From positions 1 to 4,274 of IMG/VR virus record IMGVR_UViG_2737471869_000021: DNA of 4,274 nucleotides. One strand, written 5' to 3'. This DNA comes from a virus (taxonomy: Duplodnaviria; Heunggongvirae; Uroviricota; Caudoviricetes). Position numbers and translations under genes: made by a program. The notes under the pieces were generated by a model. It ran no database searches. It was not told the DNA's origin and saw only the letters and a list, made by a program, of their open reading frames with translations. Shown piece by piece: positions 1-4,006 of the stretch; the stretch's first letter is position 1, and every line of letters begins with the position of its first letter.

Positions 1-192
1 TCAGGAGCATTTCTGATTAACGCCACCGTTAAGAATCCACCCTTCAACAGCTTCACGAAGGTATGATTTGGGGTGGGTTCTGACTGGCTTCGGAAATCCG
101 TGTCGTTTGGTATAGTTCCAGATTGTCTGACGTGATGAAACACCGAGCTTGTTCATCACTTCTTTCTCAGGAATCAGGCTGGTATCGGTCAT
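1..192 (-). CDS. AlpA-family helix-turn-helix DNA-binding protein, putative prophage excisionase / regulator (63 aa)
   Basis: Complete ORF with ATG at 192..190 and TGA at 3..1. A GGAG Shine-Dalgarno sits 7 nt upstream (minus-strand 'ctGGAGaattaagATG'). The protein (MTDTSLIPEKEVMNKLGVSSRQTIWNYTKRHGFPKPV...EAVEGWIL) has the AlpA/Xis-like pattern of short HTH, 'FPKP' and a conserved W near the C-terminus. Its position at the distal end of the ea region matches the xis slot upstream of int in P22-like phages. Confidence 0.7.
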   Translation of the reverse strand: MTDTSLIPEKEVMNKLGVSSRQTIWNYTKRHGFPKPVRTHPKSYLREAVEGWILNGGVNQKCS

Positions 193-206
193 CTTAATTC
201 TCCAGG

Positions 207-230
207 CAAAAAGAAACCGCCATCAGGCGG
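207..230 (-). terminator. Putative intrinsic (rho-independent) terminator, minus strand
   Basis: Minus-strand RNA would form a GC-only stem CCGCC-UGAU-GGCGG (plus 217..230), extendable by A-U and G-U pairs, followed directly by UUUCUUUUUG (plus 216..207). It lies between the 55-aa ORF and the AlpA-like gene. The plus-strand orientation has no U-tract. Confidence 0.45.
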
Positions 231-390
231 CTTGGTGTTCTTTCAGTTCTTCAATTCGAATATTTGTTACGTCTGCATGCGCTATCTGCGCCCATATCAT
301 CCAGTGGTTATAGCAGTCGTTGATGTCCTCTGCTTCGATAACCCTGTCGAATGGCTCTCCATTCCATTCACCTGTGACTCGGAAGTGCAT
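223..390 (-). CDS. Hypothetical small protein (55 aa), below the ORF-track size cutoff
   Basis: Manual translation: ATG at 390..388, TGA at 225..223, giving MHFRVTGEWNGEPFDRVIEAEDINDCYNHWMIWAQIAHADVTNIRIEELKEHQAA. A GGAG Shine-Dalgarno sits 7 nt upstream ('tatGGAGatgataaATG'). The stop codon lies in the loop of the downstream terminator hairpin. The residue composition looks protein-like. I recognise no family. Confidence 0.4.
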   Translation of the reverse strand: MHFRVTGEWNGEPFDRVIEAEDINDCYNHWMIWAQIAHADVTNIRIEELKEHQAA

Positions 391-401
391 TTATCATCTC
401 C

Positions 402-428
402 ATAAAACAAAACTCGCCGTAGCGAGTT
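402..428 (-). terminator. Putative intrinsic terminator, minus strand, downstream of the DUF551 gene
   Basis: Perfect 7-bp stem AACTCGC / GCGAGTT with a 4-nt loop (plus 411..428). On the minus-strand transcript it is followed immediately by UUGUUUUAU (plus 410..402). The T-tract runs into the Shine-Dalgarno of the 55-aa ORF. Confidence 0.5.
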
Positions 429-490
429 CAGATAAAAGAAATCCCCGCGAGTGCGAGGATTGTTATTCACCTTTGACGGCAAGTTGCAGG

Positions 491-1084
491 TTAGCCACGG
501 TTAACCTCCTGAGGCGGTTCTGGTAGCGGCATCCAGTGGGTTACTCCATGCCATATACCAGTTGAGGTTTCAAACCTTGGCTCTCTGCCTTTCTGTGTCT
601 TGGCATATTCATTCCTTGTATATACGCATTGTCTAACTGCATATCCATTCCATCCAATAACTGTTTGTCTAATTTCTGGCATTCGCTCACTACAGCTTAT
701 CCAGCTATCCTTAATGCCACTATCTTGACTCTGAAGCATGGCGGCACGACAGGCGTTCCAGCCTCTCACCTCTGCAATAGCGGCAACAGCATCGACCGCG
801 TACATTTTAAGAGGGTTAGGCATTGGTTTTTCTTCAGGTACTACTGGAATGGGTGGGGCGGCGTAGACCTCAATAATTCCATTATCAATAGGCCATTCTC
901 CATCCTTGAGGTAGTCACTTGTGCCGTCAACTTGCTGTTCTGCAATGTGGAATGCACCTATTGGTTTTGCCTCAAGCGATGCCAGTGCAATTCGTGCCAG
1001 TTCCATTTGTTCGCCACGGGTAAGCCCGTTTTCAAGCGGGGATTTAATGAACAATTCGATACGTTCTTTAGTGATAGTGCTCAT
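491..1084 (-). CDS. DUF551-domain phage protein (197 aa from ATG 1084; the track's longer 224-aa form from 1165 is less likely)
   Basis: The C-terminus carries the DUF551 hallmark (...WISCSERMPE...GIWHGVTHWMPLPEPPQEVNRG). The preferred start MSTITKERIELFIK has a strong Shine-Dalgarno (minus 'AAAGGAGagtgatATG'). That start lies 1 nt after the upstream gene's TGA (1088..1086), so the two genes are coupled. The 1165 start would overlap the Ea22-like gene by about 80 nt out of frame. Confidence 0.7.
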   Translation of the reverse strand: MSTITKERIELFIKSPLENGLTRGEQMELARIALASLEAKPIGAFHIAEQQVDGTSDYLKDGEWPIDNGIIEVYAAPPIPVVPEEKPMPNPLKMYAVDAVAAIAEVRGWNACRAAMLQSQDSGIKDSWISCSERMPEIRQTVIGWNGYAVRQCVYTRNEYAKTQKGREPRFETSTGIWHGVTHWMPLPEPPQEVNRG

Positions 1085-1085
1085 A

Positions 1086-1784
1086 TCACTCTCCTTTGAT
1101 GCGAATGCCAGCGGCGCGTGGCACATTAACTTCCACGATGCGCACTGTTGGTTTGTACATCTCAATCGCTGTCAGCCAGTCAGCTCCTGCCATGCGCTTT
1201 TCCGCATCGCCATTAGTCCACTGAACCGGTACACCAATAGCCTTCATCGCGATTTCTATTTCCCCGGCAATGGCGCTTTTTCCGCAACCAGTAAAACCAG
1301 AAACAACGACAAGAACTTCGCCTTTGGCTGGTTTTATTTCCCGCGCTTCCAGTTTTGCTATGCGCTTCTCTGATGCTTCAAGTAACGCCTGCTTATCGCG
1401 TAGCGCTTCTTCCAGTTCAGCAACATGGCACTCACTATCAATAAGGTTGTTCTCTGCGGCTTCCAGCTCAACGCGCAACTTCCCTACCGTTAACGCAATC
1501 TCCTCGTTCTCCTGGTCGCGGCGTTTGATGTATTGCTGGTTTCTTTCCCGTTCATCCAGTAGCGCCTGCACTACTTCAGGGTTGAAAGCTGCGATATAAC
1601 GAGCGTTGTTCTCTGCGTTTTTCTGTCCATCAAAGCCGGTCCATTTGATAACGTCTTCACATCGTTTATCACCGGGCGTATGCACCGCATACGTACCAGT
1701 ACCAGACGAAATAAATGCGACCCATTCGCCCGGTGTTGCCTGTTTTGCTATCTCACGCAGTGCCTGATAATTAATTTCGCTCAC
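1086..1784 (-). CDS. ea22: Ead/Ea22-like family phage protein (232 aa), GTG start; central coiled coil and a C-terminal Walker-A-like motif
   Basis: An in-frame TAA lies immediately upstream of GTG 1784..1782, so this is the first possible start. It is preceded by a strong Shine-Dalgarno ('gcAAAGGAGGctgtaaGTG'). The N-terminus ([24 protein letters not shown]...AAFNPEVVQALLDE) matches my recollection of the Ead/Ea22-like N-terminal domain. The centre is a heptad-rich coiled coil (RERNQQYIKRRDQENEEIALTVGKLRVELEAAENNL...EEALRDKQALLEASEKRIAKLEA). The C-terminus contains VLVVVSGFTGCGKSAIAG. Confidence 0.7.
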   Translation of the reverse strand: MSEINYQALREIAKQATPGEWVAFISSGTGTYAVHTPGDKRCEDVIKWTGFDGQKNAENNARYIAAFNPEVVQALLDERERNQQYIKRRDQENEEIALTVGKLRVELEAAENNLIDSECHVAELEEALRDKQALLEASEKRIAKLEAREIKPAKGEVLVVVSGFTGCGKSAIAGEIEIAMKAIGVPVQWTNGDAEKRMAGADWLTAIEMYKPTVRIVEVNVPRAAGIRIKGE

Positions 1785-2266
1785 TTACAGCCTCCTTTGC
1801 GAAGCTCTGCAGCGAAATATACAGCTGCGGAAACAATAGCTGCATGTCGGCATTCACCATCAGAAAATAAAGAATCTCCCTTAAGTGCATTGACGATACT
1901 CTGATGATTTTTTGCCAGCATCTCAACCCCCTGCGCCCGGACTTCAGCCAGGAAAGCATCGGTGGCTGGGGTGTCTGATTGCAGAGACTTTGCGCGATAG
2001 TCATTCCACCCTCTTGCATACATGGGATTAACTCGCACTCCATCTTTTACGCAATATGCCTGACCTCCACGGTTGATAACCTTGATTTCGTCCATAGCGC
2101 CAGACTTCAGCCCCGCATTCTCCGCCGCCAGCGCCGCGCACTTGGCCTCCGCTTCAGCAAATTTACGCACCAGATATTCAGCGTTTGTTTCGTTAACCTT
2201 TAAATCACTTGGGATGCATTTACCTTTCAGAAAACCATCCATCTCAATTAGTGACATTAGTTTCAT
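1781..2266 (-). CDS. Hypothetical phage protein (161 aa), ea-region gene of unknown function
   Basis: ORF with ATG at 2266..2264 and a moderate Shine-Dalgarno (GGAG/GGGAAG upstream). Its TGA (1783..1781) overlaps the GTG start of the Ea22-like gene as GTGA. The protein ([16 protein letters not shown]...[35 protein letters not shown]...[19 protein letters not shown]...) has no family I can name. Confidence 0.6.
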
Positions 2267-2385
2267 TTCTTCCCACTCCGCAACATCGCATTCAGATATT
2301 TGTTTTGATTCACTGATGGAAAAGAATTTCTCTTAAGCAATTCCTCTCTCGATGGCATTGGCTTTACGCGTTGGCGAATAATCAT
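2263..2385 (-). CDS. Possible small ORF (40 aa) in the abc2-to-161-aa intergenic gap; weak
   Basis: Manual translation: ATG 2385..2383 gives [40 protein letters not shown], ending at TGA 2265..2263. That TGA overlaps the ATG of the 161-aa gene as ATGA. There is no convincing Shine-Dalgarno and several rare Arg codons. The ATGA overlap is the only real support. Confidence 0.2.
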
Positions 2386-2437
2386 TTCTGCCGGAAGAAT
2401 GCCGGGATTGTATGCAAGTCATCTCATGGTAAATTCC

Positions 2438-2734
2438 TCAGTCATTACTGATAGCGCCATAGCGTGAGCGGTAATTACGCAGGCGCGGGTCGATATATTC
2501 AGGGAATTTGTCTATTGTCGCTTTTCGCAACGGTCTCATTGCTGTTTCGTTTGTTCGGTCCTTCTCCTGTTTTAGCGCGAGTTGTATATCGCGTCGGTAC
2601 ATCCGTTCTGCTTTTGTTTCTGGTGTCAGAGCAAGAAACGCGTCGAAATTGTTTTTGATATTTTCCAGCACCTCCGCCTTGGAGCTACCGGAGCAATTGC
2701 GCGGGTCATCCGCACCATACAGAGGCGCTGGCAT
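2438..2734 (-). CDS. abc2: Probable anti-RecBCD protein Abc2-like (98 aa)
   Basis: Clean ORF with ATG 2734..2732 and a good Shine-Dalgarno ('AAGGAttccattATG'). The size is close to the roughly 97 aa I recall for P22 Abc2, and it lies downstream of erf in transcription order. The N-terminus MPAPLYGADDPR... matches what I recall of Abc2-family proteins. This is an assignment from memory and synteny, not a search. Confidence 0.5.
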   Translation of the reverse strand: MPAPLYGADDPRNCSGSSKAEVLENIKNNFDAFLALTPETKAERMYRRDIQLALKQEKDRTNETAMRPLRKATIDKFPEYIDPRLRNYRSRYGAISND

Positions 2735-2757: not shown

Positions 2758-3141
2758 TTAGAAGGGAATTGAATCGTCGTATTCAGGATGATTTTGATGA
2801 TTGCTACTTTGTTGCTGTTGGCTGTTTCCTGAAGTTGCAAATCCAATCTTTGCATTCAGTAATTCAAGAGTGATTGATTGACCATTTTGCCCCTGATAAA
2901 CATCAACCCTGATGTTTTCTCCGGTAATTTCTACAATTCCACCTTCAACAAGAACACTACGGTAGTAATCCGCTTGCGCTCCCGGCTTGGCAAATACAAC
3001 GGCGCTGTAGTTTGTCCATTCTTTCTTTTTTGTCTGGCGATCGTAATACTGAACGCCAGCACGGATGTTGAATCCGATATTTTCCCCGGCCTGAAACTCT
3101 CTTGCGGGCTTGTTTAGTCTTACAGTAATCGAATGTGCCAT
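2758..3141 (-). CDS. ssb: Phage single-stranded-DNA-binding (SSB-like) protein, minimal OB-fold with C-terminal acidic tip DDSIPF (127 aa)
   Basis: The protein ends ...SGNSQQQQSSNHQNHPEYDDSIPF, a Gln-rich linker plus a D-D-x-I-P-F tip like the C-terminus of bacterial SSB (...DDDIPF). The core (KEWTNYSAVVFAKPGAQADYYRSVLVEGGIVEITGENIRVDVYQGQNGQSITLE) resembles the SSB OB-fold segment ([32 protein letters not shown]...). Its ATG (3141..3139) overlaps the erf TAA (3143..3141) as TAATG. Confidence 0.7.
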   Translation of the reverse strand: MAHSITVRLNKPAREFQAGENIGFNIRAGVQYYDRQTKKKEWTNYSAVVFAKPGAQADYYRSVLVEGGIVEITGENIRVDVYQGQNGQSITLELLNAKIGFATSGNSQQQQSSNHQNHPEYDDSIPF

Positions 3142-3746
3142 TAAGCAGCCGCTCCTTCTAATTCATCTCGTCTGATGTTGTAAACGTCCTGCGCTTTGTG
3201 CTGCTCCGGTGTGCCTTCGAGCATCTTCCACGCTTTGGCGAACGCCTGTTTAAGCTCTTCCACGTTGTTTTTCTGCATTGCTGCGTCAGTGAATGCTTTT
3301 AGAACCTGTTCAGGTGTAGGTGATGGTTTTGATTGCTTTGCTGCTGCGTTCTGCTGATGTTTATGCTCGTCTGTATCTGCATCTTTCGCATCATCAATGC
3401 CGAATAAACCATTGAGGCAATACTTGCGTGCATAAGAGCTTGTAGCTCCCGTAACTTGTGCAGAATCCATTCCTTTCTTGCTTTCTTCCTCTCGTGCAAG
3501 AGCGGTTGCCGTATGACTGTTTTCGCCATCGGTAATAGTTGCCGTGGCTTTCACGTAATACCGATCACCAATCAACACAACTTCATCGCTGATTGATAAA
3601 AACAGGCCATTCAGTAACGGTTTAACACCTTCAAGAATATCTTCGCAGCTTCTGTATTTATATTTACCGAATGAGTTGTAATGATTTTTTGGCGCGTTCA
3701 GATTCTCCTGAATAGCTGCCAGTCTTGCGTAAAATTCTTTGCTCAT
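3141..3746 (-). CDS. erf: Erf-family single-strand annealing recombinase (201 aa from ATG 3746)
   Basis: The N-terminus MSKEFYARLAAIQENLNAPKNHYNSFGKYKYRSCEDILEGVKPLLNGLFLSISDEVVLIGDRYYVKATATITDGENSH... closely matches P22 Erf as I recall it. The track's 211-aa form begins at a TTG (3776) that adds MGHVHSENKH; the ATG at 3746 is the likelier start. Confidence 0.85.
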   Translation of the reverse strand: MSKEFYARLAAIQENLNAPKNHYNSFGKYKYRSCEDILEGVKPLLNGLFLSISDEVVLIGDRYYVKATATITDGENSHTATALAREEESKKGMDSAQVTGATSSYARKYCLNGLFGIDDAKDADTDEHKHQQNAAAKQSKPSPTPEQVLKAFTDAAMQKNNVEELKQAFAKAWKMLEGTPEQHKAQDVYNIRRDELEGAAA

Positions 3747-3756
3747 ATGTTTGTTC

Positions 3757-3927
3757 TCAGAATGGACATGGCCCAAGTAAATAACGCTGATTTAATACTT
3801 CAGTCTTTGCCGCATTTAAAAATACGCGAACACCTTCACGATCTCCCTTCTGGCGATACATTAACGCCTGCTGCGTGTACATGCGTCTCTGTAACTTGCT
3901 CTCCTTCACTGTGGTTGCAAGTGACAT
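3757..3927 (-). CDS. Small protein (56 aa) immediately upstream of erf; positional candidate for an Arf-like accessory gene
   Basis: Manual translation: ATG 3927..3925 with a very strong Shine-Dalgarno ('cgaAGGAGatattcATG'). Protein MSLATTVKESKLQRRMYTQQALMYRQKGDREGVRVFLNAAKTEVLNQRYLLGPCPF, TGA at 3759..3757, 10 nt before the erf ATG. It is below the ORF-track cutoff. It overlaps ORF 3836..4006 out of frame by 92 nt. Confidence 0.45.
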   Translation of the reverse strand: MSLATTVKESKLQRRMYTQQALMYRQKGDREGVRVFLNAAKTEVLNQRYLLGPCPF

Positions 3928-4006
3928 GAATATCTCCTTCGTTACCGATTAAATCTTTCATCTGACGAATGAATTCTTCGTCTGACCAGTTATCTGTAAA
4001 ACTCAT
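3836..4006 (-). CDS. Alternative small ORF (56 aa) coupled to kil; conflicts with ORF 3757..3927
   Basis: ATG 4006..4004 overlaps the Kil-like TGA (4005..4003) as ATGA. Protein MSFTDNWSDEEFIRQMKDLIGNEGDIHVTCNHSEGEQVTETHVHAAGVNVSPEGRS. The N-terminal half looks protein-like; the C-terminal half is low-plausibility and lies in the overlap. The Shine-Dalgarno is weak. The track's 61-aa version starts at a GTG (4021) with no Shine-Dalgarno. Confidence 0.25.
   Translation of the reverse strand: MSFTDNWSDEEFIRQMKDLIGNEGDIHVTCNHSEGEQVTETHVHAAGVNVSPEGRS

Follow-up and report, generated by a model that had tools for sequence, protein, structure and literature searches.

We consider the small gene orf55 of the lambdoid phages. 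In phage lambda it is, according to Sergueev 2002 (cited in PMC3824215), the last of the seven open reading frames (ORFs) of the exo-xis region. The gene has had a name since the era in which lambda and phage 434 were sequenced. Its lambda copy (29121..29285, lambdap35, NP_597778) carries the RefSeq label 'hypothetical protein, predicted by GeneMark', the record of 434 (M60848) lists it as 'ORF55', and the record of HK022 labels its homolog 'undocumented homolog present in lambda'; the gene is absent from phi24B (PMC8614690). A fold model of the lambda protein was published in 2021, together with the suggestion of a role like that of T7 Gp2 (PMC8614690). A later paper that cites Sergueev 2002 (PMC9239242) attributes to earlier work a link between a lambda fragment with orf73, ea22, ea8.5 and orf55 and the inhibition of host replication initiation.

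The present study concerns a stretch of viral DNA of 4,274 nucleotides, the whole of which is called the window. Three hairpins that flank orf55 in the window are called A, B and C, where A and B lie ahead of the gene and C lies at its end, and all three have counterparts in the described phages. The lambda terminators t3, t4 and t5 predicted by ARNold (Table 4 of Bloch et al. 2014, PMC4195576) have the sequences that hairpins A, B and C, in that order, take in lambda. In the 434 record (M60848) the terminator t-L4 is annotated exactly over the homolog of hairpin A, while t'-I, the positional equivalent of hairpin C, is annotated just ahead of xis. The record of HK140 (JQ086370) has a rho-independent terminator at the equivalent of window positions 208..230, that is, at hairpin C. 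The literature that we found holds predictions and annotations only, and no direct termination measurements, for tL4, t4 and t'I. The gene being named, its fold modelled and its flanking terminators predicted and annotated, its occurrence in the window is an ordinary finding.

The reading that we prefer, to which we give a probability of about 0.8, is that positions 205..461 of the window (minus strand) form a lambdoid orf55 cassette at the far end of a pL-type operon. The cassette would consist of tandem terminators, orf55 itself and a terminator that has the stop codon of the gene in its loop, and its expression would be gated by antitermination.

Results

All the substantial genes of the window are on the minus strand. 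These are the genes for an ERF recombinase (erf, 3141..3746), an SSB-like protein (2758..3141), the anti-RecBCD protein Abc2 (2438..2734), a 161-aa protein (1781..2266), an Ead/Ea22-like protein (1086..1784) and a DUF551 protein (491..1084), followed by orf55 and by an AlpA-like, excisionase-type gene (1..192, with a Shine-Dalgarno sequence GGAG at 203..200 and its ATG at 192..190). As in an early-left operon, erf, abc2 and the Ead/Ea22 gene share one strand. The window holds the distal genes of such a lambdoid early leftward operon, where orf55 lies downstream of the erf, abc2, Ead/Ea22 and DUF551 genes and directly before the excisionase-type gene. The product of the latter matches Pfam AlpA at E = 0.003, below the gathering score, and the excisionase family PHROG 66 at E = 1.9e-8; the HK140 counterpart is named 'AlpA family regulatory protein' in RefSeq. 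On the plus strand, the end of an integrase gene (RSISD*, the last five codons and the stop) occupies 3..20, with the rest of the gene beyond the window. The HK140 integrase ends at the equivalent of window position 20, and in three related loci (L001, L040 and L077) a 392-aa integrase ORF ending in ...RSISD is on the opposite strand. In every relative that has the orf55/AlpA junction and enough flank, the integrase is convergent and overlaps the AlpA-like gene by 20 nt.

The gene orf55 (223..390, minus strand) encodes the 55-aa protein MHFRVTGEWNGEPFDRVIEAEDINDCYNHWMIWAQIAHADVTNIRIEELKEHQAA and ends with a TGA at 225..223. Read from the sequence, a Shine-Dalgarno GGAG at 398..401 stands 7 nt ahead of the ATG. 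A reading made beforehand from the sequence alone had proposed this frame, with a good Shine-Dalgarno sequence, at 390..223, and had ascribed its omission from the ORF track to a size cutoff; both points hold, the default of the ORF tool being 60 aa. That reading called the gene unannotated, which is true only of its own ORF track. By its sequence matches, the small gene of the window is lambda orf55, or PHROG 676, which is already catalogued and not new. In a PHROG profile search, residues 1-55 match profile positions 1-55 of 55 of PHROG 676 at E = 5.4e-39. The protein has 94.5% amino acid identity over all 55 residues with the translated lambda gene (tblastn), and likewise 94.5% with ORF55 of 434. 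Of 5426 complete E. coli genomes, 2174 carry the 276-nt cassette at a coverage of at least 80%, and among the matches listed the E. coli RefSeq name for the gene is 'hypothetical protein'. Searches of Pfam, NCBIfam and PADLOC with the 55-aa protein gave no family, and a profile search of the PDB sequences gave nothing under E = 0.19.

A gene of this size could be a chance ORF, with the RNA elements around it as the sole functional parts of the locus. The lack of a Pfam or NCBIfam family for the frame would fit such a reading, as would the fact that a function of the product is without experimental demonstration. The pattern of variation, however, is that of a coding sequence. We compared 53 distinct nucleotide versions from 103 related loci, leaving out of the selection analysis the frameshifted or chimeric E. 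coli fragments that a word-index protein search had returned. The variable sites are distributed 11/3/20 over the three codon positions, mostly at the third, and the pooled pN/pS of 0.20 is the lowest among the six frames. The ORF, whose conservation in related prophages had been proposed as a check on it, is thus kept in the relatives under purifying selection, and orf55 is a real gene. Its Shine-Dalgarno sequence and the spacing of the latter are also conserved, full-length homologs of 51-57 aa at 36-62% identity retain an invariant tryptophan and an acidic E..D motif, and the protein yields a confident structure model. Taken together, these data on selection, homologs, fold and Shine-Dalgarno sequence have effectively refuted the chance ORF already, and we regard its probability as next to negligible.

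The Orf55 family is a narrow, enterobacterial one. Of 1.84 billion cluster representatives searched exhaustively with HMMER, only 52 match, some of them full-length (51-57 aa) at about 41-57% identity. Homologs at 36-55% identity are present in phage records from a bat-faeces siphovirus, phage 15G, a Proteus phage and a Morganella phage. In the family alignment W9, E19 and D22 are invariant and the motif WNGEPF...IEAEDExDC is conserved. As a side observation, the matches from a scan of species-representative genomes are mostly lambda DNA that contaminates unrelated assemblies, and they bring no added diversity. A single-sequence AlphaFold2 model has a mean pLDDT of 88, with strands at residues 2-9, 12-19 and 41-49 and a helix at 23-36; residues 53-55 alone fall below 50. 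This beta-beta-alpha-beta fold of three strands and one helix agrees with the published model of lambda Orf55 (PMC8614690).

The published analogy with T7 Gp2 fares less well. In a structural comparison with Orf55, Gp2 ranks 40th and 42nd only, behind PurS, eL20 and many others. T7 Gp2 is an inhibitor of host RNA polymerase. When viral models are searched with Foldseek, none matches at E <= 0.001, and Gp2-like inhibitors appear at E of about 0.1. An hhalign comparison of the Orf55 profile with the Gp2 sequence returns a probability of 1.7%. The residue R45 in strand 3, proposed as the counterpart of the key Gp2 arginine, is H, E, N or D in other Orf55 members. With no Foldseek match at that threshold, such a low profile probability and no conservation of R45, we judge the analogy, which may still hold, weak and unsupported. 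Orf55 is a small acidic protein and most likely a binder or modulator of a host protein in early lytic growth.

We turn to the RNA around the gene. Hairpin A, found by a terminator scan at 440..461 (minus strand), has a 9-bp stem, AAUCCUCGC-ACUC-GCGGGGAUU, followed at 439..430 by the tail UCUUUUAUCU (also written TCTTTTATCT). Hairpin B (410..429, minus strand) reads GAACUCGC-UACG-GCGAGUUU, where 429..422 pairs with 417..410 in an 8-bp stem, and its tail UGUUUUAUGG (also written TGTTTTATGG) at 409..400 runs into the orf55 Shine-Dalgarno sequence. With A and B both ahead of it, orf55 is preceded by a tandem pair of hairpins. Hairpin C (214..233, minus strand) reads AAGCCGCC-UGAU-GGCGGUUU, with an 8-bp stem of 233..226 and 221..214 and the tail CUUUUUGCC (also written CTTTTTGCC) at 213..205. 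Its 5' arm encodes the C-terminal Ala-Ala of Orf55, and its loop UGAU (225..222) contains the TGA of the gene. The folding energies are -13.1 kcal/mol for A (z = -5.4), -11.9 kcal/mol for B (z = -4.4, with 0 of 200 dinucleotide shuffles as stable) and -13.0 kcal/mol for C (z = -3.3, with 1 of 200 as stable). The sequence-only reading had bracketed the gene with two terminators and had suggested a comparison of their folding energies. That comparison supports both of its hairpins: the downstream one has the TGA (225..223) in its UGAU loop as described, and the upstream one is present with its tail running into the Shine-Dalgarno sequence, though with a stem of 8 bp and not 7. The count of two was too low, as it overlooked hairpin A (461..440), which is equally strong.

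The three hairpins have the features of intrinsic terminators, namely G+C-rich stems of 8-9 bp, 4-nt loops, a position on the transcribed strand and a U-rich tract directly 3'. The U-tracts (UCUUUUAU, UGUUUUAU and CUUUUUG) are each broken by one non-U residue, and the efficiency of each putative terminator may for that reason be modest. Over the whole window the scan finds 8 terminator-like sites where 4.9 +/- 2.4 are expected, an unremarkable total; of the four minus-strand sites, however, three lie within the roughly 130 nt flanking orf55. Both the minimum free energy fold and the centroid fold of 490..195 contain three independent hairpins only, with no competing antiterminator structure, and a leader-peptide attenuator was rejected on the ground that these folds hold no alternative of that kind. 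A role of hairpins A and B as boxB/nut or put-like elements was rejected as well: their loops, ACUC and UACG, are tetraloops and not pentaloops of the GNRA-like kind, both hairpins come with a U-tract of their own, and Rfam offers no match. The single Rfam hit at E <= 1, to Leu_leader, is meaningless: it is on the wrong strand and scores 20.8 bits (E = 0.57), where the gathering score is 50.

Since the integrase converges on this region, one may ask if hairpin C is bidirectional, so that on the plus strand it would also terminate an integrase transcript running antisense through the AlpA-like gene. The plus-strand integrase of the closest relatives, ending at window position 20, would supply such a transcript, and the scan does give two terminator-like sites on that strand (217..230 and 221..237). 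The plus-strand fold, however, reaches -11.7 kcal/mol with z = -1.3, and with 18 of 200 shuffles as stable it is no better than shuffled sequence; the plus-strand tail CUUGGUGUUC is a poor U-tract; and lambda and 434, whose int is co-directional, have this hairpin too. We therefore hold a second, plus-strand role of hairpin C to be improbable.

The promoter scan bears on how the genes behind the hairpins would be transcribed. We find no sigma-70-like promoter within or around the cassette and none near 390-520; the sole promoter-like site of the whole window by the consensus scan is at 4000..3973. The intergenic region upstream of orf55 is filled by two of the terminator-like hairpins. The T-tract of hairpin C ends just 4 nt ahead of the Shine-Dalgarno sequence of the AlpA-like gene, and a promoter would not fit behind this hairpin. 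The window contains no antiterminator gene and no nut or put site.

The hairpins are maintained among relatives. Of 73 distinct cassettes, 72 have a hairpin with a T-tract at site C, 70 have one at site B and 65 have one at site A. Together with the folds and z-scores, this conservation upholds the earlier impression that the hairpins resemble intrinsic terminators on the transcribed strand. The variants of hairpin B keep their pairing (U-A to U-G), and hairpin A of 434 has a U-A pair in place of a U-G wobble. In one cassette (L074) both sides of the hairpin A stem have changed, from AAUCC/GGAUU to AAACC/GGUUU, turning a U-A pair into A-U. In several loci (L065 and L100, and the L066 group) hairpin A is replaced by an unrelated hairpin with a near-identical T-tract behind it. 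The Shine-Dalgarno GGAG is identical in all cassettes that have hairpin B directly upstream; two others (L034 and L101) have an insert between hairpin B and orf55 and bring their own GGAG. Hairpin C of 434 is damaged (GGCGG to GGAGG, -7.3 kcal/mol), and there an extra gene, ORF114, comes next and is followed by the intact t'-I, an exception that fits the pattern. For the hairpin C family, RNAalifold gives a consensus of 7 bp, one pair of which occurs as A-U (6 sequences), G-C (5) or G-U (4). Compensatory changes are thus observed; the close relatives diverge little, and most pairs are uninformative for that reason.

We also examined 19 more distant relatives, at roughly 36-85% protein identity. 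In 15 of the 19 the stop codon is in the loop, or at the loop edge, of a hairpin with a T-tract, and such hairpins are kept down to about 47% identity. Examples are AGGCUGCC-UAAU-GGCGGCCU, GGCCGC-CUAACAA-GCGGCU, GAAGCCGCC-CGCUGA-GGCGGUUUU and GGGUCGCU-AACU-AGCGGCUU. The upstream terminators are not conserved across the family in these 19 relatives. The homologs of the Proteus and Morganella phages have no flanking hairpins, which indicates that the terminators are not needed for the function of the Orf55 protein. In the Proteus, Morganella and Tbat2_3 phages the homolog is near kil, cIII, ssb or a repressor gene and not beside xis, and in Tbat2_3 an N-like gene is also near.

The persistence of the stop codon in the loop suggests a more elaborate role for hairpin C, that of a translation-sensing terminator. 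A ribosome that finishes orf55 a short way behind the polymerase would cover the 5' arm and block formation of the hairpin, so that read-through into the excisionase-type gene would be coupled to translation of orf55, and the Ala-Ala end of the protein would be dictated by the RNA stem. The arrangement is indeed kept in those 15 relatives despite a coding identity of only about 47-62%, the register of the hairpin shifting by a few nt only. Moreover, position 54 varies between A, T, S and D in close relatives and residues 53-55 are modelled at low confidence (pLDDT below 50), which suggests that RNA rather than protein is constrained at the C-terminus. An overlap of stop codon and terminator, on the other hand, is to be expected anyway from a compact genome, and an unrelated 216-aa upstream gene in one locus (L116) likewise ends with ...QAA* within a hairpin. 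The downstream gene is not xis in the distant relatives, so that no regulatory target is conserved, and an antiterminated polymerase would read through regardless. We consider such translational gating unlikely, and keep to hairpin C as an ordinary putative terminator that overlaps the end of its gene.

Lambdoid modules have long been thought to be exchanged at short shared boundary sequences. Around orf55, homology between relatives sets in at hairpin A, within it, or between it and hairpin B, and stops within a few nt of the T-tract that follows hairpin C. Upstream we counted no fewer than ten different neighbours, and downstream five genes: lambda xis, an ORF114-type gene, a 66-aa gene (MQHELQPDSLV...), a 71-aa gene and the AlpA type of the window. 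Two cassettes are instructive for the last of these. In L042 and L046 orf55 and the AlpA-like gene are separated by an extra gene, behind which comes a second hairpin, AGCCGC-UAUAU-GGCGG-UUUCUUUUUGCCUGGAGAAUUAAGAUG, that shares its 3' arm and tail with hairpin C of the window. By this arrangement, the 3' arm of hairpin C, its tail and the Shine-Dalgarno sequence behind it belong to the AlpA module and its 5' arm to orf55. By this sequence comparison, hairpin C of the window is a recombinant, a chimera of two terminators, which agrees with module exchange at short boundary sequences.

It may then be asked if the hairpins are mainly recombination linkers at module boundaries, with any terminator activity incidental. 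The chimeric hairpin and the breaks of homology exactly at the hairpin edges, with so many upstream contexts starting from hairpin A and five genes right after the T-tract of hairpin C, are what such linkers would produce. They would not, however, account for the compensatory and wobble changes that maintain the stems, for a T-tract that is always kept and always on the transcribed strand, or for the frequent replacement of a lost hairpin A by an unrelated hairpin before a near-identical T-tract. This pattern of stem and T-tract points to selection on the function of the RNA. The two roles are not exclusive, and a mainly recombinational one appears very unlikely to us; the hairpins are better read as putative terminators at which module boundaries also fall.

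Discussion

In the reading that we prefer, an antitermination-gated cassette at the end of a pL-type operon, unmodified RNA polymerase would stop at the three hairpins and only a polymerase that the antitermination machinery of the phage has modified would read through; lambda and 434 have N/nut for this, and HK022 has put RNA. The two genes behind the hairpins, orf55 and the AlpA-like excisionase gene, would through this stop and antiterminated read-through become delayed-early genes, shielded from stray transcription from upstream. In evolution, orf55 travels as a unit with the putative terminator that overlaps its stop codon, and the hairpins coincide with the break points of lambdoid module exchange. 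Our comparisons show which gene this is, that it is under coding selection, and that the hairpins exist, are conserved and covary. We infer both termination at the hairpins in vivo and its override by antitermination from the sequence and from the analogy with the lambda pL operon.

By that analogy, expression of orf55 and the AlpA-like gene would most plausibly need read-through by an antiterminated polymerase, given that there is no promoter between the hairpins and only the 4-nt gap before the Shine-Dalgarno sequence of the AlpA-like gene. The sequence-only reading had likewise made the small gene and a downstream xis/int pair depend on read-through. This most plausibly stands for the AlpA-like gene. 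It fails for int, whose gene in the closest relatives is convergent on the opposite strand and whose expression thus cannot depend on read-through of the hairpins. The alternative that it offered, a local promoter, finds no promoter-like site in or near the cassette. Its choice of N-type antitermination proves too specific. HK022 is known to antiterminate via put RNA and not via an N protein, and the same cassette is found in HK022 as well as in lambda and 434. Its occurrence with N/nut as well as with put suggests ordinary terminators, overridden by whichever antitermination system a given phage has. To call the locus a regulated insulator goes beyond the evidence, in that we find no alternative RNA structure and no sensor. 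On the whole, the earlier observation is correct and slightly incomplete, and its interpretation broadly matches the lambda pL operon and is wrong on the integrase.

The wide distribution of the cassette gives these points some reach. About 40% of complete E. coli genomes carry it, so that a function established for Orf55 would hold for very many prophages. In the same way terminators that silence an excisionase until antitermination, if shown, would apply to many prophages, those of Shiga-toxin phages included.

We close by placing the locus among known systems. A moron is a promoter-gene-terminator unit that is inserted between conserved genes. The orf55 cassette resembles morons in being a small accessory gene with its own downstream terminator (here a predicted one), in being present or absent among relatives and in its mosaic junctions. 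It differs from them in that no promoter of its own is detected for orf55, and there are putative terminators upstream instead. With terminators ahead of it and no promoter of its own, orf55 would be silent in a repressed prophage and not expressed.

The closest likeness is with orf55 of lambda itself. The window and lambda share the same Shine-Dalgarno sequence, the tandem hairpins upstream, the hairpin whose loop contains the stop codon, and the position directly before an excision gene, where the early leftward operon ends. Three residues of the protein differ. The upstream neighbour is the DUF551 gene in the window and ea8.5 in lambda. Behind hairpin C the difference is larger. In lambda this hairpin is directly followed by TTGCGTGTAATTGCGGAG, which is the TTGC-N6-TTGC cII site of promoter pI. 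Compared with the terminators of lambda, 434 and HK140, the tail UUUCUUUUUGCC of hairpin C in the window belongs to the AlpA module and not to the lambda pI region. The cassette of the window thus leads into an AlpA-type gene with a convergent integrase, whereas that of lambda leads into xis-int with the cII-dependent pI promoter.

Hairpins upstream of orf55

The region upstream of orf55, the 55-aa gene of the lambda Orf55 family (window 223..390, minus strand), contains the terminator-like hairpins A (461..440) and B (429..410). In many of the minimum free energy folds, the UUAUCU linker between the two hairpins (window 431..436, minus strand) pairs with AGAUGA (392..397, minus strand), which is located just 3' of the orf55 GGAG. 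Hairpin B would lie inside this predicted 6-bp helix, which would also mask part of the ribosome-binding region. The two strands of the helix are almost invariant among the relatives that keep the hairpins, and covariation therefore provides no test of the helix.

Some of the related loci contain an additional small gene in this region. In L034 and L101 it is carried by an insert of about 320 nt that separates the start of orf55 from hairpin B. In L066, L084, L098 and L104 the insert is about 810 nt long and is preceded by a copy of hairpin A and followed by a hairpin that replaces it. In each of these loci, the terminator sequence is partly duplicated and flanks the insert on both sides.

Other sites in the window

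A fourth minus-strand terminator-like site, CGUGAAGGUGUUCGCG followed by UAUUUUUAAA (window 3825..3840), is located within a 56-aa ORF (3757..3927) upstream of erf. Between erf and abc2, the 127-aa protein (window 2758..3141, minus strand) matches PHROG 44, a single-strand DNA-binding protein family (E = 2e-28), and has no Pfam family match. The HK022 gene of the same size and at the same position is annotated as "likely analog of P22 Abc1". The two annotations would conflict if these 127-aa genes are homologous. The 161-aa gene is separated from abc2 by a gap of about 170 nt (window 2267..2437), for which no family was detected and whose sole content is a 40-aa ORF (2263..2385).

Hairpin C and the downstream genes

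Hairpin C (window 233..214, minus strand) holds the orf55 stop codon in its loop. The Ala-Ala-stop-in-hairpin arrangement is not unique to orf55, because the 216-aa gene that precedes a distant orf55 homolog in L116 (2310..2960) is unrelated but ends in the same manner, with the terminus QAA and its stop codon within a GGCUGC/GCGGCC hairpin followed by a T-tract (L116 2950..2968).

Assemblies labelled Shewanella, Pseudomonas, Kitasatospora, Oceanobacillus, Bradyrhizobium and others contain copies of orf55 identical to that of lambda (L006-L021), and several of these copies are on contigs that have low coverage and a length of about 48.4-48.5 kb. These copies are almost certainly contaminating lambda DNA (e.g., spike-in or control DNA) and do not indicate real hosts.

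Downstream of hairpin C, the stop-codon end of the excisionase-type AlpA-like gene (window 1..192, minus strand) is overlapped by 20 nt by an integrase gene that converges on it. The window starts within the 3' end of this integrase gene, and the final codons, RSISD and the stop, occupy window 3..20 on the plus strand; in the relative L001 the integrase gene spans 1342..2520. This differs from lambda xis-int, since in the window the two genes are transcribed towards each other.

In the related loci L042 and L046, an extra gene separates orf55 from the AlpA-like gene, and a second hairpin is located about 390-430 nt downstream of orf55. Because this second hairpin has its 3' arm, T-tract and Shine-Dalgarno in common with hairpin C of the window (3' arm and T-tract at window 205..221), hairpin C appears to have arisen by recombination between two terminators. 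The same relation is seen between phage 434 and lambda.
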